From NCBI GenBank assembly GCA_965223085.1, contig OZ244981.1:4289161-4353160 (forward strand): a stretch of DNA of 64,000 nt, read 5' to 3'. The translations under genes and the position numbers were made by a program. Below the pieces are notes generated by a model. That model was not told the origin of the DNA and did not search any database. It saw only the letters and a list, made by a program, of their open reading frames with translations. Shown one piece after another: positions 21,522 to 45,849 of the stretch; within the stretch, counting starts at the first letter, position 1; the number at the start of each line of letters is the position of its first letter. The DNA comes from Gammaproteobacteria bacterium. Lineage in GTDB: Bacteria > Pseudomonadota > Gammaproteobacteria > Ga0077536.

Positions 21522-22715
21522 CTAAGCGCGAGGCACAGCGCGGCGTTTGAGTTGCTGTGAAACCAAGCCCCCGAGCGCGAGCGATAGCAATGCCAGGGTG
21601 CCCGGCTCCGGGATCTTCGCAGCCACGATCGCCTCACTGAGAAGCAAATGGGTGCGGCTGCTAGGGTGGAGTCCGTCCCAAAACATGAAATCATTCGGGT
21701 CTAGCCCCGCCGCAGAACACAAGTCCGTGAATCAGGCATCGAGACATGGACCAACGCCACCCGGAAAACCCGCCCCGACGGGGTCGGCCAAGACCCTCGC
21801 GCCGAGATCACCGAGCAAAGCATAGGTGTCGAGCAACATGATATCGATGCCGAGCGTAGCGCGTAACTCGGCGATCGTGAGTTCGAGTGCGTTGTTATAC
21901 GCTGCGGCGCCATCAGACAACTCCGGCGCACGTCCGCTGAAAAAACCAAACGGCGTTAAACCGATGTCGGGAATATTCGGCACTAAAAACTCGGTGGCAC
22001 CAAAACCGGCTAGCGTCTCGATAGCTTCGCGTACTTTGGTAACCGCCGCTCCCGCAAGCTGTGGTGCGGTGCTGCCTTGTTCGTCGGCGAAGACCAGATC
22101 ATTCGCGCCCGCCCACACGACGTGCCAGGCCGTTGCCGAGGCACTGCCGCCGCTCAATAAACTATATAACTCAACTTGCTGCTGAAGGCCGGGAAACCCG
22201 GGGGCACCTAGGAAACGATCGTTCGTGTTGAAGGAATCACCGCCGCCACCGACACCCGGCGGGAATGGATAGGAATTCGCATACGCCCCACCGACTGCAA
22301 AATTATCGAATCCTCCGGTCAACGCCCCGCTCAGAAACGCGTTATTCACCGGGCCGGCGCCATAGCGCTGAGCGAGATGATCGACCCACACCGGCCCATT
22401 GGAAAAACGCTCTGCGTACGGGGGACTAGGCGGAATTCTTGGTGTATCGGGCGGCAAACCGAGGCTGTCAAACAGCGCGTCGCTAATGCCAAACATATTG
22501 CCTGTATCGGATAGGCTATCACCGAAAATGACCACTTCAAGCGGTGATCCGAGGCCGCCGATGGGAACGAGAAGGATGAGAAGGATCAACCCGCTGTGAA
22601 ATATCTTCGCAATCATAATGTGCTCCTCCGAATGCGTGAAGCAAGTTTGTTCTATTGTCGGATAATGCAAGGCACGAACAGTGCCAAGGGCTAATTCAAG
22701 TGAAAATTCCAGCAA
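21522..22715 (-). pseudogene. GDSL/SGNH lipase with C-terminal PEP-CTERM sorting signal, interrupted by in-frame TGA
   Basis: Signal peptide, then block I VVIFGDSLSDTGN. After an in-frame TGA at 21732..21734, the same frame continues with block V FWDGLHPSS and a PEP-CTERM tail IPEPGTLALLSLALGGLVSQQLKRR. Reading the minus strand by hand confirmed the frame is continuous (..GPCLDA*FTDLCSAAGLDPNDFMFWDGLHP..). Confidence 0.7.
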
Positions 22716-37592: not shown

Positions 37593-39215
37593 ATGACCAC
37601 CCTGCGACAGTGGTTTAACGATAACATTCTCGAGCTCGGTCGCGAAATACGGTTGTCGTTTCTACCACCGTTAATGGTTTACCTCGCGGCGGGTATTCAG
37701 GGCTTAACCGGAATAGTCGGAACTTTTTTCATTAAAGATTACCTCGGCTTATCCGCCGCATTCCTTGCAGCTCTAGGTTTCTGGGCTGGGATCCCGTGGG
37801 CGCTGAAGATGCCACTAGGTCATCTCGTCGACCTGCTGTGGCGCTATAAAGCGTTTTTTGTTTTTCTCGGTGCCGCCTTGGTCACGACGGGTCTGCTGAT
37901 TATGATCGGTTTGATCTCTGATCCCGTCGCGATGCGCCGCGTGTTGCCAGCTGAGCATTGGTTTGTCATCGCCGCACTGCTCTCACCGGTTGGTTACATG
38001 ATGCAAGACACCGTCGCCGACGCGATGACCGTCGAGGCAGTTCCACGTGTCGATGATAGCGGCCAGCCAGTCCCTGCCGCACAGCGGCGTTTAATGAACA
38101 CGACCATGCAAACCTTAGGTCGCGTCGCTATTGTCGGCGGAGGCGTTCTCGTCTCACTCGTCAACGTCTATATGTTTCGAAATGTTGAAACGCTCGCAGA
38201 AGCGGAACGCACCGCAATATATGCCGACGTCTACCGCCTCGCTTTGATCATTCCCGTGATTTCCGTGCTGGGAGTCATCCTCGCTTGGCGGCTAAAACGA
38301 CGCCGGATCTCGACTTTGCGAGCGCATGGCAAATCCCCAGCAGAAATTGCCGCGTTGTTGGACATTCACAGCGAAACGCCACAGCCGAACTGGTGGATAC
38401 TCGTTGGTAGTGCGATTTTTGTCGCGCTCACGCTTTTTATCGGCTTAGGCAAATTCACTTACGGCCAGGAACTGATCTTTTTGGGTTCCATGACGGTCGT
38501 CGGCGTCTTAATGTGGAAGTTGTTGCAAGAACTCGATGAGGCTGCACGTCGTACCTTGCTCGGCACGGCGATCATTATTTTTGCGTTTCGGGCACTACCG
38601 GGTCCTGGTGCTGGTTCTAGCTGGTGGATGATCGACGAATTGGGGTTCGACCAAGCATTTCTCGCCAAGCTCGCTTTGATCGCAAGCTGTTTGACGTTAG
38701 TTGGACTATTCGCCTTTCGCCGCTTGATGGCACAAGCATCGATCGCCTACATCGTTGCCTTGCTAACGATCATAGGATTTCTATTGGGCTTACCGATCAT
38801 AGGCATGTATTTCGGCCTCCATGAGTGGACCGCTGAGCTCACCGGTGGCCTCGTCGATGCTCGCTTCATCGCCTTAGTAGATACCGCATTGGAATCGCCG
38901 CTAGGACAAATATCCATGGTGCCGATGTTGGCCTGGATCGCCAACTCTGCGCCGCCACACCTGAAAGCGACTTTTTTCGCGGTCATGGCGTCGTTTACCA
39001 ACCTCGCCCTCTCAGCCGCGCAACTCGGTACAAAGTATCTCAATCTCCTGTTCACTGTGACCCGAGAAGTTCGTCACCCCGTCACCCAAGCCGTTACCCA
39101 AGCGGCCGACTACAGCGAGCTAGGGGCATTGCTGATCGTCGTGAGCGTGCTGGCCCTCGCCCTACCGCTATTCACCATTGCCGCAACCCGGGCGCTTGGT
39201 CTGCGGAGCGCCTAG
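37593..39215 (+). CDS. MFS-type polytopic transporter (BT1/folate-biopterin or PucC-like)
   Basis: 540 aa with ~12-14 TM helices and the N-terminal pattern GIQGLTGIVGTFFIKDYLGLS, reminiscent of the BT1 family. Confidence 0.55.
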   Translation: MTTLRQWFNDNILELGREIRLSFLPPLMVYLAAGIQGLTGIVGTFFIKDYLGLSAAFLAALGFWAGIPWALKMPLGHLVDLLWRYKAFFVFLGAALVTTGLLIMIGLISDPVAMRRVLPAEHWFVIAALLSPVGYMMQDTVADAMTVEAVPRVDDSGQPVPAAQRRLMNTTMQTLGRVAIVGGGVLVSLVNVYMFRNVETLAEAERTAIYADVYRLALIIPVISVLGVILAWRLKRRRISTLRAHGKSPAEIAALLDIHSETPQPNWWILVGSAIFVALTLFIGLGKFTYGQELIFLGSMTVVGVLMWKLLQELDEAARRTLLGTAIIIFAFRALPGPGAGSSWWMIDELGFDQAFLAKLALIASCLTLVGLFAFRRLMAQASIAYIVALLTIIGFLLGLPIIGMYFGLHEWTAELTGGLVDARFIALVDTALESPLGQISMVPMLAWIANSAPPHLKATFFAVMASFTNLALSAAQLGTKYLNLLFTVTREVRHPVTQAVTQAADYSELGALLIVVSVLALALPLFTIAATRALGLRSA

Positions 39216-39684
39216 CCCGGATATTGCACGAGAGGCTTGCGACGCGGTGTTTAGAAAAAAAACCGCCAGATGACCCACAGCGGGAAACCGAGCACCGCAA
39301 CGCTCGTCACCAGCAGCAACGCGAGATTTGTCGGGTCGACACCGTCGCGATTGAGCGCGCGCCAGTGTCGATCGCACCACGCCCCTTCTTGACCCGTGAT
39401 GGGATGAGGGCGCCGGTGCCCCGGCCGACCACATAAGGCACAGCGGCCACAATAGCCTACGGGCAACGGCGCGGCATCGTTTCGGTGGCGCGGCCGTTTT
39501 CCCGCACCACAGGCACAATCAGCGGTTTTCGCTCTCTTGCTCATAACCGCATTGTCAGTGACGGCGCATCCTGGCAGCAAGTGCGGCGTAGTCCTAGCGG
39601 CGCGGCCGTCGACCATGCAACAGAAATCGACGATTCATTAACCCCGCAACGGCCCTCCCTGCGTTCGTATGGATATCGCCCTGT

Positions 39685-40539
39685 TTGCCGGAGTTCATGA
39701 TGCGCCGTTTGCTTCTCACCGACCCTCGCTACTACCAGATGGTCACGTTATCCGCCGTTATGTTGTTTGGGCTTGCCCGCTGCGACTTGCAACTTCAAGG
39801 GCTGGTTTGTGGGGCGATCCTGTGCAGCGTCTTGGTGAGCGAGCGCTTAGCGGCCAACTTGGTTTCACAGCGGCAATTCGAGTGGCGGAGTGCACTGATC
39901 ACGGGCTTGTCTTTGTGTTTGCTATTGCGCACTTCTGTACCGTGGCTCGCGGCCAGCACCGGTGCGCTCGCTATCGCCAGCAAATATTTATTGCGTGGAC
40001 CCCGGGGGCATTTGTTTAACCCTTCTGCCTTAGCACTCGTCGCGGCGACTTCGATATTCGACCAAGCGTGGATCAGCCCTGGGCAGTGGGGACACAGCTA
40101 CAATCTTTGTTTACTCGCTTGTGGTTGTGGCCTCATCGTCGTCTCACGTGCTGCGCGCCTCGACGTCTCGTTGGCCTTGCTGCTGAGCTACGCCGCCTTA
40201 GTGGCCGCCCGCGCCTACTATCTAGACGATCCACTCGCGCTAGTCGGCCACCAACTTAGCAATGGTTCGCTACTGATTTTTGCGTTTTTCATGATTTCAG
40301 ATCCGCGCACGACGCCCGCTACGCGTGCCGGCCGCATTAGCTTTGCAATGGTAGTTGCGATCCTCGCTTATTGGTGGGAATTCGTCCGCTACGAGCCGAA
40401 CGGCCTGATCTTCGCCTTAGTCTGGTGTGCCCCGCTGATCCCGGCCTTAGACCGTCTTTTCCCCGCGCGGGACACGGCTCGACCCTGTCGCGATCCCGCG
40501 GCAACGTCCGCCGCAGTCACACCGCTAGCCCGCTTTTAA
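39685..40539 (+). CDS. hypothetical polytopic membrane protein (8 TM; three G-H-x-x-N motifs, CGCG motif)
   Basis: 284 aa, highly hydrophobic, with GHLFNPS, GHSYNL, GHQLSNG and LLACGCGL. Weak and unverified resemblance to NqrB/RnfD-type or sortase-like membrane proteins. Tightly linked (25 bp) to the downstream secreted protein. Confidence 0.5.
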   Translation: MPEFMMRRLLLTDPRYYQMVTLSAVMLFGLARCDLQLQGLVCGAILCSVLVSERLAANLVSQRQFEWRSALITGLSLCLLLRTSVPWLAASTGALAIASKYLLRGPRGHLFNPSALALVAATSIFDQAWISPGQWGHSYNLCLLACGCGLIVVSRAARLDVSLALLLSYAALVAARAYYLDDPLALVGHQLSNGSLLIFAFFMISDPRTTPATRAGRISFAMVVAILAYWWEFVRYEPNGLIFALVWCAPLIPALDRLFPARDTARPCRDPAATSAAVTPLARF

Positions 40540-40563
40540 TTAACAAGCAAGAGGAGTTATTAC

Positions 40564-41889
40564 ATGTCGAAAACCACTGCCAATCGTATTTTGCTACTCA
40601 TCAGTCTCACGTTTACGGGTCAATGCGTCGCATTTTGTGGCTTCTATGTCGCCCGTGCCGATGCGGAGCTCTACAACCAAGCCTCGCAAGTCGTTCTCGT
40701 GCGCGACCAAAATAAAACCGTGATCACGATGAAAAACGACTTTCGAGGCGACACCAACGAGTTCGCACTTATCGTTCCGGTGCCGACGATGATCGAACGT
40801 GAACAAATTAACGTCGCTGATCCCGCGCTGCTCGATCGTCTCGACGCCTATACAGCGCCGCGCTTAGTGGAATATTTCGACGCCGACCCTTGCCGAACAC
40901 TGTATCGCCTGGAAGCGCCTATGGCAAATGCAGTCAGCGAGATGTCAGCAAAGTCGAGTACCCCGCGTGCGCGTTCTCTCGGGGTGACCGTCGAAGCGCG
41001 CTACGCCGTGGGTGAGTACGATATTCTCATCTTATCCGCGACCCAAAGCGCAGGACTCATGCGATGGTTAGACGAGAACAACTACGAAATCCCCACTGAC
41101 GCCGGTAAAGTGATCGCCGGCTACCTCAAGCAAGGTATGCGATTTTTCGTCGCCAGAGTTAACTTGGAGACCCAAGCGAAGCTCGGCTACTCGTTTCTCC
41201 GTCCGTTGCAAATCGCCTACGACAGTCCCCGCTTCATGTTGCCGATACGGCTCGGCATGGTGAACGCCAACGGCCCCCAAGACCTCTACGTCTATACCTT
41301 GACCCGTACCGGCCGTGTTGAGACACGTAATTATCCCACCGCACGTATTCCCAGCGGTGAGACATTGCCGGTTTCGGTGCAAGCAAAATTTGCTGATTTC
41401 TATCGCGCAATGTTTACCCGCACGCATGAGCAACATCGCGCCCGCGCGAGCATTCTCGAATACGCTTGGGACATGGCGTGGTGTGATCCCTGCGCTGCAG
41501 ATCCCCTAAGCGCACAAGAACTGCGCGCCTTAGGGGTCTTTTGGCTAGACGCAAACGCGGCTACCAACCAGGGTGTGAACACATTTGTCACCCGCCTGCA
41601 CATCCGCTACGACCAGCAACATTTTCCCGAAGATCTCATGTTCATTGAAACGGGTGATCGCGAAAATTTTCAAGGTCGCTATGTGATCCGCCATCCGTGG
41701 ACAGGCGCTAGCCGCTGTCCGGCGGCGACGAAATACTTCACCGTAACACTGCCGCAGCAACGACGTGCGGCCGCGATACAGTTGGCGAACCTCACCGGTT
41801 GGCCCGCGCCAACAGCGAATATTTCCACAGGTGAAGCGCGCGCACCGTGGTGGCGGTTCTTGTGGAAAAATTCGCGCAGCACACCGTAA
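40564..41889 (+). CDS. hypothetical secreted protein (DUF2330-like)
   Basis: 441 aa with a signal peptide, a conserved-looking N-terminus after cleavage (FCGFYVARADAELYNQ) and multiple Cys pairs. Confidence 0.5.
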   Translation: MSKTTANRILLLISLTFTGQCVAFCGFYVARADAELYNQASQVVLVRDQNKTVITMKNDFRGDTNEFALIVPVPTMIEREQINVADPALLDRLDAYTAPRLVEYFDADPCRTLYRLEAPMANAVSEMSAKSSTPRARSLGVTVEARYAVGEYDILILSATQSAGLMRWLDENNYEIPTDAGKVIAGYLKQGMRFFVARVNLETQAKLGYSFLRPLQIAYDSPRFMLPIRLGMVNANGPQDLYVYTLTRTGRVETRNYPTARIPSGETLPVSVQAKFADFYRAMFTRTHEQHRARASILEYAWDMAWCDPCAADPLSAQELRALGVFWLDANAATNQGVNTFVTRLHIRYDQQHFPEDLMFIETGDRENFQGRYVIRHPWTGASRCPAATKYFTVTLPQQRRAAAIQLANLTGWPAPTANISTGEARAPWWRFLWKNSRSTP

Positions 41890-42243
41890 CAACGCTCATA
41901 TGTTGCGTCGCGCCACACGCACAGCGGCGGACATGATATTTAGGTCCAGACCTGCCGAGACACGTCAGTTTGTGCCGCTGGTGGGTCAACCGACGACGCC
42001 GAGCGCAGACTTGACACTTAATTTGAAACGCTGCACGGCGTCAGCAGCGCCCCCACCGCAGTGCGCGTTGTGACTTCCGCCGACTTCACGAGGATCTAAT
42101 TGTGACGGTGTTCGCACATTGCCGCGGGCTGTTACCGAAATAGATCATTTGGCATGTCGATTGCAACTATGGTGACATCTGAAACACCGAGTGATTGTGA
42201 CCTTAGCAACGCAGTACAGACTTCTCCCTCCCTCCGCGAAACT

Positions 42244-42888
42244 TTAAGCGCCCGTTATCGGGCGCTCTTTCTTTGTTGGCGGCGCCTCGCATACGACACC
42301 GGTACCACCAAGCCCGCAATAACCGCCCGGGTTTTTCGCCAAATATTGTTGATGGTAGTCCTCGGCGTAGTAAAACCGCGAGGCGCTCTCGATTTCTGTC
42401 GTGATCGCATCATAACCAGCACCATTCAAAGCGCGTTCATAAGCTACTTTGCTGTGCCGCGCCGTATCACGCTGCGCATCCCCGGTAACATAGATCGCTG
42501 ACCGATATTGCGTGCCTACATCATTGCCTTGGCGCATTCCTTGGGTTGGATTGTGGGATTCCCAAAAAATTTTCAATAAAAATGCATAGGCAATCTGACG
42601 CGGATCAAAGACCACCTGGACGACTTCGGCATGTCCGGTCAAACCCGAGCAAACCTCTTCATAGGTGGGGTGCGGTGTCGCCCCCCCGGCGTAACCCACC
42701 GCGGTCGAATAGACCCCCGGCAGTTCCCAAAACTTTTTTTCTGCACCCCAGAAGCAACCCATTCCGAACCACGCCAGTTGCGTATGCGACGGGAACGGCG
42801 GTAGTAGCGGCGTGCCTAATACATGGTGCTCGGCACTCACGGGCATCGGCGTAGCGCGCCCGGCAAGCACTTCCGTGGCGCTCGGCAT
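42244..42888 (-). CDS. msrA: peptide-methionine (S)-S-oxide reductase
   Basis: Active site GMGCFWGAE. The N-terminus [14 protein letters not shown] aligns with E. coli MsrA (GRNTPMPVATLHAV). The ORF is open to 42936. Confidence 0.9.
42247..42280 (+). terminator. Rho-independent terminator-like hairpin (possibly bidirectional)
   Basis: AGCGCCCG-TTAT-CGGGCGCT (8-bp GC-rich stem) followed by CTTTCTTTGTT on the plus strand. It sits immediately after the msrA stop codon on the minus strand. Confidence 0.5.
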
Positions 42889-43206
42889 GACGGGCGTTCT
42901 CGGTTGTAAATGCATGCTTAATTCCTCCCACAACAAACTTCTAACGAGCGCCTACTTGATCGCTGGGCGGTAATACTTGGCGCTCCATGTAAAGACCATT
43001 TTTACGCTACAATTTTAGCCGGACTGAGCGCTGCGTGCGGCGACCGCAGTGCTCCGTTGAAGGATACTAGCGTGCTGCCGGACATGAACAGAAACCCGAG
43101 CGCTGTACGTCGGAGATCGGCGACGAAACAAACTTAAGCACCGGACGATAAATTTTGCATGTTCCGCGTATTACAAGGCGCAAAAACCGTGCTGCCTACA
43201 AAAACG

Positions 43207-44286
43207 ATGCTCTCAAAAATTCCAGATAACCGTTCGACTAGATGGAAGTCGTTCGGCCGTCTCGTGCTCTGTTGCTGCCTCGTCGGTGTTGCGCACGCGC
43301 TACCGGCGGATGATTCGAAGTCGCCGTCTGAAACCTCCACGTTCACGTTTATGTTTGAAAACGATCTGTTCGGAGATAGAGATGAACAGTATACCAATGG
43401 GATTCAAATAGGGTGGTTGTCACCGGATTTGAAGCATTACGCGGAGGCGAGGCGACTTCCACGCTGGTTTCTACCCATCGTCGCAGCGATGCCGTTTATC
43501 AATACCCCAGGAAACCAACATAACGTGGGATTTAGCCTCGGGCAAAAAATCTATACACCACGTGACATCCAGTCTTTCTCCCTCATCCGGGAAGACCGCC
43601 CGTATGCGGGTTGGTTATACGCGGGACTCGCGTTCGTGAGCAAGAGCGCTGAACGTCTAGACACAATCGAAATCCAAGCGGGGGTTGTCGGTCCTTACGC
43701 GCAAGGTGAAGAAACGCAAAATTTTGTTCATAGCATTCGCGATCTCCTGACCGCGAAAGGGTGGGACAATCAGCTAGAGAACGAGCCCGGCTTCGCACTC
43801 ATATATGAACATAAGCGTCGCCCGTGGCGTAGTACGAACCCTAGCGGGTGGGGCTACGATGTCATCGTTCACGCCGGCGGTGCGGCAGGCAATGTGTTCA
43901 CCTACCTCAACGCGGGCGCTGAAGTCCGTGTCGGCTGGAACTTGCCGGGCGATTACGGCACCTCTGTTATTCGCCCAGGTGGTGACACGAACGCACCAAC
44001 CACAGTCGACGACCCGCGCTTAACCTCCAAGCATGATTTCGGCGTGCACATCTTCTCTGCACTCACGGGTCGCTACATGATCCGTGATATTTTTCTCGAT
44101 GGCAACACTTTTTCGAATAGCCACGATGTGGACAAACAGTCGCTCGTCGGAGACCTCATCGTCGGTGCCAGCTTTACCTACCGCCGAATCAAACTATCCT
44201 ATGCGCAGGTATTTCGCACCCGCGAGTTTGAGGGTCAAGCAGATAAGCACAATTTCGGCTCAGTAAGTATCTCTATTACTTTCTAG
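43207..44286 (+). CDS. outer-membrane beta-barrel protein, lipid A 3-O-deacylase LpxR-like family (DUF2219)
   Basis: Signal peptide, then the family-typical FENDLFGDRDEQYTNGIQIGW motif and a C-terminal aromatic residue (..SISITF). Confidence 0.65.
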   Translation: MLSKIPDNRSTRWKSFGRLVLCCCLVGVAHALPADDSKSPSETSTFTFMFENDLFGDRDEQYTNGIQIGWLSPDLKHYAEARRLPRWFLPIVAAMPFINTPGNQHNVGFSLGQKIYTPRDIQSFSLIREDRPYAGWLYAGLAFVSKSAERLDTIEIQAGVVGPYAQGEETQNFVHSIRDLLTAKGWDNQLENEPGFALIYEHKRRPWRSTNPSGWGYDVIVHAGGAAGNVFTYLNAGAEVRVGWNLPGDYGTSVIRPGGDTNAPTTVDDPRLTSKHDFGVHIFSALTGRYMIRDIFLDGNTFSNSHDVDKQSLVGDLIVGASFTYRRIKLSYAQVFRTREFEGQADKHNFGSVSISITF

Positions 44287-44601: not shown

Positions 44602-45849
44602 TTGTTCTCCCCCCTCGCCCTGCGCATAGCGACAAGATATCTGCGTTCAAAACGACGTAACCGCTTCGGTTCTTTTATCACGATCGCTTCCGTATTTGGC
44701 ATCGCCTTAGGTGTCGCGGTCTTGACGATCGTGCTCTCAGTAATGAACGGTTTTGAGGTCGAAGTCTCTCGGCACGTTCTCGGCATGACGGCCCACACAA
44801 CAGTCTATCAACTCGGTGAGCCGCTTGATAATTGGGAATCCGTGGGCGCCACTGTGCGTGCTCAACGACACGTGATCGCAGCCGCACCTTTTGCACGTGC
44901 GAGTGGCATGCTCAGTCACCGCAATGCGGTGCGAAGCGTGATGGTATACGGCATCGATCCCCGCTACGAAACCCAGGTTTCCGACATCTCGAACTATCTT
45001 GGCAGCGCTTCCATATCATCCCTCAGCGCTGCATCGAACGATATTTTTCTGGGCCAAGCGCTCGCACGCGATCTCGGCGTCAGGGTGGGAGATCCCGTCA
45101 CGTTAGCTTTACCAAATTGGGATCGTGACAACGGTCTGCGACTACCAATTTACGCACGCTTTCGCGTCGCCGGAACTTTTCACAGCGGCATGCACGAATT
45201 CGACGCCAACCTTGCACTCACCTCCCTCACGCGAGCACAAGCCTTGCTGCAACTCGGCACAAAAGCAAGCGGTTTGCGCGTTAAACTAGACGATCCACAA
45301 CTCGCCCCCGTAGTGTCAGCTCAGATCGCGGAGCAGCTCGGCACACCCTATGGTTTAGTTAATTGGACACAATACCATCGCAATTTTTTCTACGCCCTAA
45401 AGTCGCAGAAACGCATTATGTTCGTCATTCTGTCGCTAATTATCGCCATTGCCGCATTTAACATCGTTGCTTCGATGATCATGCTAATAAAAGAAAAACG
45501 CCGCGACATCGCCATTTTGCGTACGTTTGGGTACACGCCCCGTGCCGTGTTGGCTATATTCTTGACCCAAGGGGTGATCATCGGTGCGATCGGTGCGGCG
45601 CTAGGCATCATCCTGGGCTACATCGGCGTACTAGAAGCACCGTCGATCGTCGCCGTAATCGAACAATGGTTTGACATAAAATTTATCAAGCCGGATGTCT
45701 ACTACATCGATTACCTACCAGCTGAAATCCGAATCGCGGACGTGGCGCTGGTGGCGCTGGCCGCTTTTTGCCTGTGCGTGCTCGCGACCTTCTATCCCGC
45801 CTGGTCGGCTAGCCGCATTCAACCTGCCGAAGCGTTACGCTATGAGTAG
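44602..45849 (+). CDS. lipoprotein-releasing ABC transporter permease LolC/LolE family (FtsX-like)
   Basis: 415 aa. The N-terminus (LALRIATRYLRSKRRNRFGSFITIASVFGIALGVAVLTIVLSVMNGFE) closely parallels E. coli LolC/LolE. It has a periplasmic MacB-like domain plus 3 C-terminal TMs. No ATPase gene follows. Confidence 0.8.
   Translation: MFSPLALRIATRYLRSKRRNRFGSFITIASVFGIALGVAVLTIVLSVMNGFEVEVSRHVLGMTAHTTVYQLGEPLDNWESVGATVRAQRHVIAAAPFARASGMLSHRNAVRSVMVYGIDPRYETQVSDISNYLGSASISSLSAASNDIFLGQALARDLGVRVGDPVTLALPNWDRDNGLRLPIYARFRVAGTFHSGMHEFDANLALTSLTRAQALLQLGTKASGLRVKLDDPQLAPVVSAQIAEQLGTPYGLVNWTQYHRNFFYALKSQKRIMFVILSLIIAIAAFNIVASMIMLIKEKRRDIAILRTFGYTPRAVLAIFLTQGVIIGAIGAALGIILGYIGVLEAPSIVAVIEQWFDIKFIKPDVYYIDYLPAEIRIADVALVALAAFCLCVLATFYPAWSASRIQPAEALRYE

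Follow-up and report, generated by a model that had tools for sequence, protein, structure and literature searches.

In the Nqr complex, ions are proposed to pass through the RnfD/NqrB membrane core, whose fold appears similar to those of Amt and urea channels. Enediyne E5 (UnbU) is a stand-alone RnfD-like membrane protein that is encoded beside the secreted protein E4/UnbV. DsbB–DsbA and VKOR–thioredoxin are examples in which an inner-membrane protein has an exported partner with Cys residues or a CxxC motif, and in some cases the two are fused. Closest to the locus considered here are Nqr/Rnf-like complexes of two subunits, in which an RnfD-like subunit lacks the flavinylation Thr and its flavin site is the proposed docking place of an extracytosolic partner (Meheust et al., 2021, PMC8238504; PMC11334425).

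We compared these systems with a pair of genes, A and B, found in a gammaproteobacterial window (the whole 64,000-nucleotide stretch of DNA that was analysed; positions are counted from its first letter). An earlier sequence-only reading of the window had described the two genes as a linked, co-directional pair, and the ORF list agrees: both lie on the plus strand and 24 nt separate 39685..40539 from 40564..41889. The features of the locus are as follows.

39685..40539, plus strand: gene A, RnfD/NqrB-superfamily polytopic inner-membrane protein, 284 aa from TTG 39685; PF03116
39691..39694, plus strand: GGAG, likely ribosome-binding site for ATG 39700, read from the sequence
40552..40556, plus strand: AGGAG ribosome-binding site, 7 nt 5' of the gene B ATG, read from the sequence
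40564..41889, plus strand: gene B, exported DUF2330 protein, 441 aa; PF10092
42247..42266, plus strand: GC-rich hairpin followed by a T-run, possible bidirectional terminator between gene B and convergent msrA

The true start of gene A is probably ATG 39700, which gives a protein of 279 aa; the public record P0001 starts the gene at this position (M6). The neighbours of the pair in the window include BT1, MsrA, LpxR and a LolC/E-like protein, among others. A terminator hairpin had been placed after the pair, and the hairpin and T-run are indeed present; however, the hairpin starts 358 nt past the gene B stop and lies inside the final codons of msrA, an ORF that converges on the pair (42244..42936, minus strand; MsrA, PF01625), and because of this distance and its position inside the msrA 3' end, its tie to the pair is loose and uncertain. 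A search of Rfam around the pair found no riboswitch or other RNA element, the sole match being suhB/mmgR, which at 23.9 bits stays under its cut-off of 41, and neither A nor B matched the PADLOC models of anti-phage defence.

The RnfD/NqrB membrane core without its FMN loop

We found that A matches PF03116 in Pfam (74.2 bits against a cut-off of 27.7, E 1.6e-20) and that a profile of the A family matches the solved RnfD chains 8ahx_D, 9eri_D and 7zc6_D (E 2.6e-17). These matches overturn the earlier view of A as an unclassified protein with no convincing fit to the NqrB/RnfD family. A and the RnfD/RsxD/NqrB proteins have a homologous polytopic core with matching N- and C-terminal halves, and they share the H-x-F-N-P and F-F-x-x-[ST]-D-P-x-[ST] motifs. 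In contrast to RnfD/RsxD/NqrB, A is approximately 75 residues shorter, has lost the loop with the flavinylated Thr and lies below the equivalog cut-offs of NCBIfam: it scores 51.3 against 207 for rnfD (TIGR01946), 43 against 415 for RsxD, and 16.7 against 414 and 11.8 against 350 for NqrB. The cytosolic NAD-binding domain (PF00175) is absent from the 279–284 aa of A, whose only Pfam match is PF03116.

To locate the missing segment, we used the same alignments. When the A profile is aligned to the RnfD structures, RnfD residues 135–210 are skipped, and when A is compared with E. coli RsxD, the segment from about residue 147 to 220 is absent from A; the GISQATPLD of RsxD falls in this segment (SQATPL at residue 184). 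The spacing from FNP to PGQWG is 17–23 aa in 115/120 A homologs, as compared to 95 aa in E. coli RsxD. The [ST]GA[ST] flavinylation motif was found in none of 120 A homologs and none of 120 B homologs, and the D..[ST]GA[ST] motif was likewise found in 0/120. Thus, these comparisons of sequences show that the A subfamily has the RnfD/NqrB membrane fold minus a periplasmic loop of about 75 residues that carries the covalent-FMN Thr. Three segments of A mark what was kept and where the loop was lost.

40009..40023, plus strand: A residues 109–113, H-L-F-N-P, the invariant H-x-F-N-P that is common to RnfD (RsxD FNP at residue 121)
40069..40092, plus strand: A residues 129–136, W-I-S-P-G-Q-W-G, invariant and family-specific, bridging the site of the lost FMN loop
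40285..40317, plus strand: A residues 201–211, F-F-M-I-S-D-P-R-T-T-P, conserved and common to RnfD/NqrB (RsxD FFILTDPVTAS)

Written for the whole family, the invariant motif at the site of loop loss is W-x-S-P-G-Q-W-G. Invariant polar residues of A, described as buried, are R82, K100, H109, R158, D160, R176, D206, R214 and R217. The sequence-only reading had instead singled out three GHxxN motifs and a CGCG motif. The strings GHLFNPS, GHSYNL, GHQLSNG and CGCG are all present in A, but they are not features of the family: within the GH-type strings only H109-x-FNP and H189/G194 are conserved in the family alignment, and GHSYNL and CGCG are variable. Weak exosortase and CPBP-protease features had also been seen in A, and neither Pfam nor NCBIfam gave a match to such families.

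Conservation of the A–B pair

In the genome loci that were found via A, a DUF2330 gene lies directly downstream of A in 78/80, across at least nine phyla. In the metagenome loci that were found via B, A lies directly upstream of B in 69/69 assessable cases. Divergent members of the B family, with 33–44% identity, are likewise paired with A. The pair was found in Acidobacteriota, Verrucomicrobiota, Nitrospirota, Myxococcota and Alpha- and Gammaproteobacteria, and also in Spirochaetes, Rokubacteria, Binatia and Eisenbacteria; Algimonas arctica KCTC 32513 (L015) is one cultured organism that has it. The commonest gap between A and B is –4 nt (an overlap) and read-through A–B fusions make up 10/136 loci, the gaps being reliable only for this –4 mode and the read-through class, since B starts were chosen crudely. 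Full-length fusions are present in 10 of the 150 best cluster representatives, and also in P0169 and P0211. The order in the fusions is A, then a signal or TM segment, then B, and they have arisen repeatedly. None of the other gene families beside the pair was found in more than 13/80 loci, and what synteny there is appears lineage-specific.

The A–B pair therefore co-occurs across genomes, which is what the proposed neighbourhood check had asked, and the idea of an undescribed, conserved envelope module holds up on the adjacency counts, the recurrent fusions and the papers of the library we searched, which make no mention of DUF2330. Conservation of A and B together across at least nine phyla points to a widespread, unstudied machine of the cell envelope.

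The same counts bear on whether A could be a canonical Rnf/Nqr subunit or an enediyne E5 protein, with B as a chance neighbour. The PF03116 match of A is in line with such an identity, as are the names that its homologs carry, 'RnfABCDGE type electron transport complex subunit D', 'NqrB' and 'enediyne biosynthesis protein E5', the last of which (E5, UnbU) is given to close A homologs by JGI/KEGG. However, the scores of A lie far under the NCBIfam cut-offs and the FMN loop is absent; genes for further subunits of Rnf (A, B, C, G, E) and of Nqr (A, C, D, E, F) were found neither in the window neighbourhood nor across the 80 loci; and the pairing statistics exclude chance adjacency. Genes for ApbE and FMN_bind proteins are also not conserved near the pair in the 80 loci, and in this respect too A differs from RnfD/RsxD/NqrB, which are encoded with other Rnf/Nqr subunits or ApbE. 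With regard to E5, the 'E5'-named homologs P0030 and P0081 are ordinary A plus DUF2330 pairs with no polyketide synthase nearby, and PKS genes, as expected of an enediyne cassette (PKSE, E10, E3, E4), were not found in the window neighbourhood either. The name E5 on A homologs is probably annotation transfer. Scores, loop absence, neighbourhood and pairing counts refute both canonical identities, and we leave this reading next to no probability.

The pairing is not uniform in its details. In other DUF2330 subfamilies, a TM anchor replaces the C-terminal helix that B has (see below), and these relatives, bearing their own C-terminal TM anchor, still retain the A partner; because they do, A is more than a mere anchor. 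In three loci (L029, L044, L045), two tandem B genes stand behind one A. In one locus (L001), the pair adjoins alpha-2-macroglobulin and PBP1C. Near the DUF2330 relatives P0361, P0369 and P0389, there was no RnfD-like gene within the few kb examined, so B may be able to carry out its chemistry independently of A.

The exported DUF2330 protein and its predicted fold

B matches DUF2330 (PF10092) in Pfam with 273.3 bits against a cut-off of 24.7, over residues 22–360. The family has more than 8000 homologs, which form 7194 clusters at 50% identity, and B proteins from different phyla share about 60% identity in their core. Five segments of B are considered here.

40564..40632, plus strand: B residues 1–23, Sec-type signal peptide ending A-x-A (here C-V-A), the lone N-terminal hydrophobic segment
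40633..40662, plus strand: B residues 24–33, F-C-G-F-Y-V-A-R-A-D, mature N-terminus with Cys second after the predicted cleavage site
40894..40980, plus strand: B residues 111–139, hypervariable, low-complexity, disordered loop directly 3' of the invariant D-x-D-P-C110
41482..41493, plus strand: B residues 307–310, C-D-P-C (CxxC), within W-C-D-P-C-A-A-D-P-L, invariant in close homologs
41845..41874, plus strand: B residues 428–437, A-P-W-W-R-F-L-W-K-N, amphipathic Trp-rich C-terminal helix

The sequence-only reading of B fared well, in that its DUF2330 likeness and signal peptide are supported by the Pfam match and by a hydrophobic segment followed by A-x-A, and its conserved mature N-terminus and cysteines recur in the homolog alignments. 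Across the B family, A-x-A precedes the conserved N-terminal motif. The FCGFYVARAD N-terminus is invariant in 35 close homologs, and [F/M]-C-G is retained in about 80% of 66 diverse members, the N-terminal Cys being missing in about 12/66. C110 and C385 are the two invariant cysteines of B. The CxxC cysteines occur together, with both present in 50/66 diverse members and both missing in 16/66. The loop at residues 111–139 has an entropy of 3.2–3.7, as compared to about 1.5 in its flanks, and varies in length from 15 to 36 aa. At the C-terminus, all close homologs retain W429, W430 and W434, and the helix spans residues 429–437 in the predicted model. The domain fusions of long DUF2330 relatives were limited to sorting tails and a TonB-C-like insert. 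Lipoprotein anchoring of B was considered and rejected because A-x-A-F-C is no lipobox.

The position of [F/M]-C-G right behind the signal peptide would suit a recognition site, and it is here that a sortase-, exosortase- or CPBP-like A could cleave, modify or anchor B, for example at the N-terminal Cys. Tandem B genes behind one A would fit an enzyme with several substrates, and some distant DUF2330 relatives that have no A partner nearby (e.g. P0386) end in a MYXO-CTERM signal, which is the extent of the likeness to exosortase/PEP-CTERM and myxosortase/MYXO-CTERM systems. In contrast to the substrates of those systems, B has neither a PEP-CTERM nor a TM tail at its C-terminus and no lipobox, and A matches PF03116 alone, with no match to an exosortase, CPBP, rhomboid or Lgt-type family. 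No RnfD/NqrB protein is known to act as a transferase or protease, and a fusion of enzyme and substrate in at least 10 lineages would be odd. A PEP-CTERM protein in the window had been taken as a sign of sortase-like sorting, and a tail of this type does exist at 21522–21722 (minus strand); however, it lies 18 kb away in an interrupted GDSL-lipase gene and is irrelevant to the pair. The suggestion that B is processed or anchored by such sorting finds no support in these observations or in the retention of A by TM-anchored relatives, and we consider a processing role for A very unlikely.

We then asked what the predicted structure of B resembles. The AlphaFold model that we used was built from a diverse alignment of 66 sequences and has a pLDDT of 85; it supersedes an earlier, poor model from 35 close homologs (pLDDT 63). 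In this model, residues 115–143 have pLDDT below 50. By two methods, the caspase inhibitor p35 of baculoviruses is the best and sole significant structural match to the model, and it is the only Foldseek match at E ≤ 1e-3 (probability 1.00), with TM-scores of only 0.27 and 0.38. On the basis of this model, B is tentatively predicted to have a fold like that of p35. A sequence relationship between the two was tested in three ways and rejected: hhalign gave a probability of 0.1–0.2% for B against p35, the B profile found nothing among PDB sequences at E ≤ 10, and B did not match PF02331, the P35 family. An Ntn-hydrolase or class-II amidotransferase reading of B, prompted by its 'x-C-G-Φ-Φ' N-terminus, was dropped because there is no Ntn fold among the structural matches. 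Known solute-binding proteins also showed no resemblance to B among these matches.

Function of p35 relies on its N-terminal Cys2 and a cleavable exposed loop (PMC7863939), and a positional likeness between B and p35 (PF02331; PDB 1p35, 1i4e) is that each has a prominent Cys as the second residue of the mature chain, as predicted for B, and a flexible loop that is, or in B would be, exposed. In contrast to p35, which it exceeds in length by 140 residues, B is a periplasmic export and has a membrane protein as its paired partner. The likeness raises the question of whether B could be a membrane-tethered periplasmic protease trap, in which a protease would cut the hypervariable loop, the N-terminal Cys or C110 would capture or stabilise the acyl-enzyme, and A would merely hold B at the inner membrane or sense the cleavage event. 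The Foldseek match, the Cys at mature position 2, the disordered hypervariable loop beside invariant C110, the probable surface exposure of MYXO-CTERM-tailed relatives and the locus with alpha-2-macroglobulin and PBP1C beside the pair are consistent with such a trap. However, sequence similarity to p35 is undetectable and the TM-scores are low, the alpha-2-macroglobulin neighbour is a single case, and a core this well conserved between phyla would be uncommon in an arms-race inhibitor. Ligation in the manner of p35, by native chemical ligation, is impossible in B because Phe precedes the Cys, and the need for an RnfD-fold partner is unexplained where B has its own TM anchor. We consider the trap distinctly unlikely.

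The p35 fold has been known solely from insect viruses, and DUF2330 proteins are the first bacterial candidates for structural kinship with it. A bolder and still rather improbable form of the idea is that DUF2330 proteins are the first cellular relatives with the p35 fold, acting at the bacterial inner membrane as covalent, Cys-dependent traps or reactive-loop proteins. A flavin-less subunit derived from the RnfD/NqrB core of respiratory ion pumps would hold them and might also energise them or read them out. If true, at least nine phyla would possess a new kind of machine for surveillance of the envelope.

A candidate two-subunit complex of the inner membrane and periplasm

The near-strict adjacency and the recurrent fusions suggest that A and B probably form one obligate complex of the inner membrane and periplasm, a proposal drawn from comparison of sequences. 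B would be retained on the periplasmic surface of the inner membrane, docked on A at the former FMN site, and A would serve B as a membrane conduit. The two-subunit Nqr/Rnf-like complexes offer a parallel for this arrangement, as their extracytosolic partner would extend into the flavin pocket of the RnfD-like subunit, which is devoid of a flavinylation site. Like them, A and B combine an RnfD-like subunit that has no flavinylation site of its own with an extracytosolic, putatively membrane-attached partner. In contrast to A and B, those complexes have a PF00175 NAD-binding domain fused C-terminally to the membrane subunit and an NqrC/RnfG-type FMN_bind partner with an ApbE association, where the partner here is a DUF2330 protein with no flavinylation motif.

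A may conduct ions or, via a non-covalent cofactor, reducing equivalents that enter or leave the quinone pool. B may perform thiol-based chemistry through its N-terminal Cys and CxxC, and the pair would resemble DsbB–DsbA or VKOR–thioredoxin in function. The resemblance would be a functional analogy only, in that neither component is homologous to its counterpart and A, unlike those membrane proteins, has no conserved Cys pairs. A thiol/redox relay is a tentative and somewhat doubtful mechanism for A and B, and for the complex and the relay taken jointly, as a compromise, our confidence falls a little short of even.

Several observations on the pair do not sit easily with redox chemistry. Neither A nor B has a recognisable cofactor motif, A has no NAD-binding domain, and there is no conserved apbE, FMN_bind, Rnf or Nqr neighbour. 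The CxxC and the N-terminal Cys are each missing from some of the 66 diverse B members, in the proportions given above, and a p35-like fold is not a known redox fold. The DUF2330 relatives that have no RnfD-like gene nearby also do not fit an explanation that requires both proteins.

Transport is the other use to which an RnfD/NqrB core could be put, with A as a channel or transporter that moves an ion or small molecule across the inner membrane and B as a periplasmic subunit that gates it, acts as its receptor or processes its substrate. A retains H-x-F-N-P and S-D-P-x-T-x-P, a pair of half-helix motifs, as well as many invariant buried polar residues, while the cofactor loop is gone, and strict pairing with fusions would suit a channel that has a dedicated periplasmic subunit. 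However, B is unlike known solute-binding proteins, neither neighbourhood nor riboswitch hints at a substrate, and some B relatives have no A nearby. We regard a channel as a possibility on the unlikely side.

The pair shows a reuse of the RnfD/NqrB membrane core outside respiratory complexes, with no flavin and with a new periplasmic partner. The module is widespread, with thousands of sequence clusters, yet it goes unmentioned in the papers of the searched library. In metagenomes, the public names 'RnfD', 'NqrB' and 'enediyne biosynthesis protein E5' on such proteins mislead metabolic reconstruction.

Linkage of the RnfD-like and DUF2330 genes

The pair consists of gene A, which encodes a polytopic membrane protein of the RnfD/NqrB superfamily, and gene B, which encodes a DUF2330 protein:

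39685..40539, + strand, open reading frame of A, 284 aa
40564..41889, + strand, open reading frame of B, 441 aa
42247-42266, hairpin 358 nt after the B stop codon, within the last codons of the convergent msrA open reading frame (42244..42936)

The two reading frames are separated by 24 nt and AGGAG lies 7 nt upstream of B. Because A starts at the ATG at 39700 in a 100% identical public record (P0001, from a 4.74-Mb contig) and GGAG is found ahead of this ATG at 39691, A is probably 279 aa long. The hairpin that the sequence-only reading had described as following the pair is present; however, it sits well past the B stop and inside the 3′ end of msrA. Promoter and terminator scans did not return more sites than shuffled sequence, and we found no regulatory RNA at the pair with Rfam. 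There is a sub-threshold suhB/mmgR sRNA match at 42193-42281 (+; 23.9 bits as compared to a cut-off of 41, E 0.06) that spans the B-msrA hairpin and is probably driven by a terminator-like stem.

Among 80 genomic loci collected by searching through A, a DUF2330 gene is directly downstream on the same strand in 78; of the other two, L004 lies at a contig end and L012 has its DUF2330 gene 6 kb off. These loci come from Acidobacteriota, Maricaulales/Hyphomonadaceae, Woeseiaceae, Methylococcaceae, Verrucomicrobiota, Nitrospira, Myxococcota, Spirochaetales, Rokubacteria, Binatia and Eisenbacteria. When we searched through B, A was directly upstream in 69 of 80 metagenomic loci, and the remaining 11 extend for under 300 nt on that side, too little for an assessment. 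Most commonly the two genes overlap by 4 nt, and A reads through into B in 10 of 136 loci. Of the best 150 cluster representatives, 10 are full-length fusions with A first, then the signal/TM segment and then B; P0169 and P0211 are built in the same way. B-family members at 33-44% identity still have A upstream, two of them with their own C-terminal TM anchor; A is absent within the few kb available for three other B relatives. A third family accompanies the pair at 13 of the 80 loci at most, and the families that recur reflect lineage synteny. The earlier proposal of an undescribed conserved envelope module is supported, and it is well supported that A and B form one inner-membrane machine with B on the periplasmic side. 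This topology agrees with the gene order in the fusions: the basic tail at the C-terminus of A would be cytoplasmic, the signal/TM segment would follow and B would be outside.

Two tandem DUF2330 genes follow a single RnfD-like gene at three loci (L029 8815-11511, L044 8822-11503 and L045 8808-11515), and one protein (P0241, 963 aa) has two DUF2330 domains in one chain.

The RnfD-like subunit and its lost flavin loop

A matches PF03116 (NQR2_RnfD_RnfE) at 74.2 bits (cut-off 27.7), and a 20-member family profile of A matches solved RnfD chains (8ahx_D, E 2.6e-17; also 9eri_D and 7zc6_D). These matches contradict the claim that A does not fit NqrB/RnfD, a misclassification in an observation that was otherwise largely right. 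A is far below all NCBIfam cut-offs for genuine RnfD, RsxD or NqrB. In the profile alignment, A passes from position 121 to 127 where RnfD passes from residue 135 to 210, and alignment with E. coli RsxD (NC_000913.3) places GISQATPLD, the covalent FMN site, among the ~75 residues absent from A. The spacing from F-N-P to P-G-Q-W-G is 17-23 residues in 115 of 120 A homologs as compared to 95 in RsxD, and none of the 120 has an [ST]GA[ST] motif. The exact place of the lost FMN loop is occupied by an invariant W-x-S-P-G-Q-W-G, which, judging from RnfD topology, may lie on the periplasmic face; this motif is one of the family signatures, with D-P-R-x-x-Q, L-S-L-x-L-L-x-R-T, H-x-F-N-P and F-x-F-x-M-x-S-D-P-x-T-x-P. 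The motif strings pointed out previously are all present in A, although GHSYNL and CGCG are not conserved in the family.

The source names RnfD, NqrB and enediyne E5 on A homologs are annotation transfers. 'Enediyne biosynthesis protein E5' is the JGI name for P0030, P0039, P0043, P0064, P0081, P0111, P0114 and P0115 (L168-L170); neither of the two E5-named homologs that we checked has a polyketide synthase nearby and DUF2330 adjoins both. This naming looks like systematic mis-annotation through KEGG-orthology transfer. A canonical Rnf/Nqr or enediyne E5 role for A is refuted by the sub-cut-off NCBIfam scores and the missing polyketide synthase.

PF03116 appears in the searched literature only in flavinylated systems, DUF2330 (PF10092) is not mentioned there, and the pair matches no PADLOC model. 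We rate A as derived from the Rnf/Nqr membrane subunit and here joined to a new partner.

The DUF2330 partner and possible mechanisms

B matches PF10092 at 273 bits. One hydrophobic segment at its N-terminus ends in A-x-A, and an invariant F-C-G-F-x-V-A-x-A-D comes next; its C-terminus is a Trp-rich amphipathic helix. Close homologs are ~60% identical across phyla, and an exhaustive search at E <= 1e-3 returned 7194 clusters at 50% identity, of which 1205 reach E <= 1e-30. C110 and C385 never vary across a diverse alignment of 66 sequences, in which C307/C310 (C-D-P-C) are present or absent together (present in 50 of 66) and ~80% of members have the N-terminal [F/M]-C-G; D-P-C110 is followed there by a hypervariable loop of 15-36 residues, rich in A/R/S/P. 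A first model, for which 35 close homologs were aligned, was weak (pLDDT 63); the model from the diverse alignment reached pLDDT 84.9 and pTM 0.82, with low confidence only at 115-143 and the termini.

The best structural match to this model, with low TM-scores, is p35, a baculovirus protein whose inhibition of caspases depends on an exposed loop that is cleaved and on an N-terminal Cys2 (PMC7863939); sequence methods did not detect any relationship. In B, too, the second residue of the mature chain is a Cys and there is a variable, disordered loop, a parallel that is suggestive. DUF2330 proteins as bacterial p35-fold, membrane-held covalent traps would be the more novel reading; that B is such a p35-like protease trap seems to us quite unlikely.

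The nearest published analogue of A and B is a two-subunit Nqr/Rnf-like complex, in which an RnfD-like subunit without a flavinylation site takes the prosthetic group of its extracytosolic partner (PMC11334425; PMC8238504). On the strength of this analogue we tentatively favour a thiol-based periplasmic activity for B with A serving as the membrane conduit; B would dock on A at the former FMN site. Our confidence in this mechanism is low. Cofactor motifs, an NAD domain, an FMN_bind partner and ApbE are all absent, and some B relatives occur without A. That A is instead a channel with B as its periplasmic subunit is unlikely.

The sortase-type processing suggested previously is not supported, and A as a processing enzyme with B as its substrate is very improbable. 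One B relative, P0386, passes the MYXO-CTERM threshold. P0386, P0372, P0369 and P0389 (L171, L172), all long DUF2330 relatives that lack an RnfD-like gene nearby, have a terminal tail of Cys, TM and an Arg-rich stretch; P0372 also contains an AgmX/PglI (TonB-C-like) insert, a type of domain found in the myxobacterial gliding proteins GltG and GltJ.

Other genes near the pair

The PEP-CTERM protein of the earlier reading is a GDSL-type lipase at 21522-22715 (-), which looks like an interrupted gene, pseudogene or sequencing error: the lipase reading frame (21732..22715, -), with VIFGDSLSDTGN, runs into a stop or frame change, and a 66-aa piece (21522..21722, -) carries the DxxH block and the PEP-CTERM tail (IPEP-TM-KRR). 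In the 480-nt 'intergenic' stretch upstream of A there is a 121-aa minus-strand ORF (39251-39616) that contains several CxC and CxxC pairs, ends in a hydrophobic segment (…LALLLVTSVAVLGFPLWVIWRFFF) and has no Pfam or NCBIfam match; it may encode a small zinc-ribbon membrane protein or be spurious.

Downstream, a gene with a strong match to LpxR, an outer-membrane lipid A 3'-O-deacylase (43159-44286, +; PF09982, 361 bits), and then one for a LolC/E-like permease (44602-45849) lie near the pair; these envelope genes are not conserved with the pair. In one MAG (L001, 1-10243), genes for alpha-2-macroglobulin (1841 aa) and a PBP1C-type protein, a known periplasmic protease-trap pair, directly precede A, whose reading frame continues into the first third of a DUF2330 gene with a frame shift; this neighbourhood was seen once and is not conserved at other loci. 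Probable local synteny, which hints that the window derives from a related gammaproteobacterium, is seen with L170, a methylotroph-like contig that carries H4MPT, PQQ and Moco genes: its BT1/MFS gene (1-433) lies ~7.5 kb ahead of the pair, and in the window a BT1/folate-biopterin-type MFS transporter gene (37593-39215, +) immediately precedes the pair.
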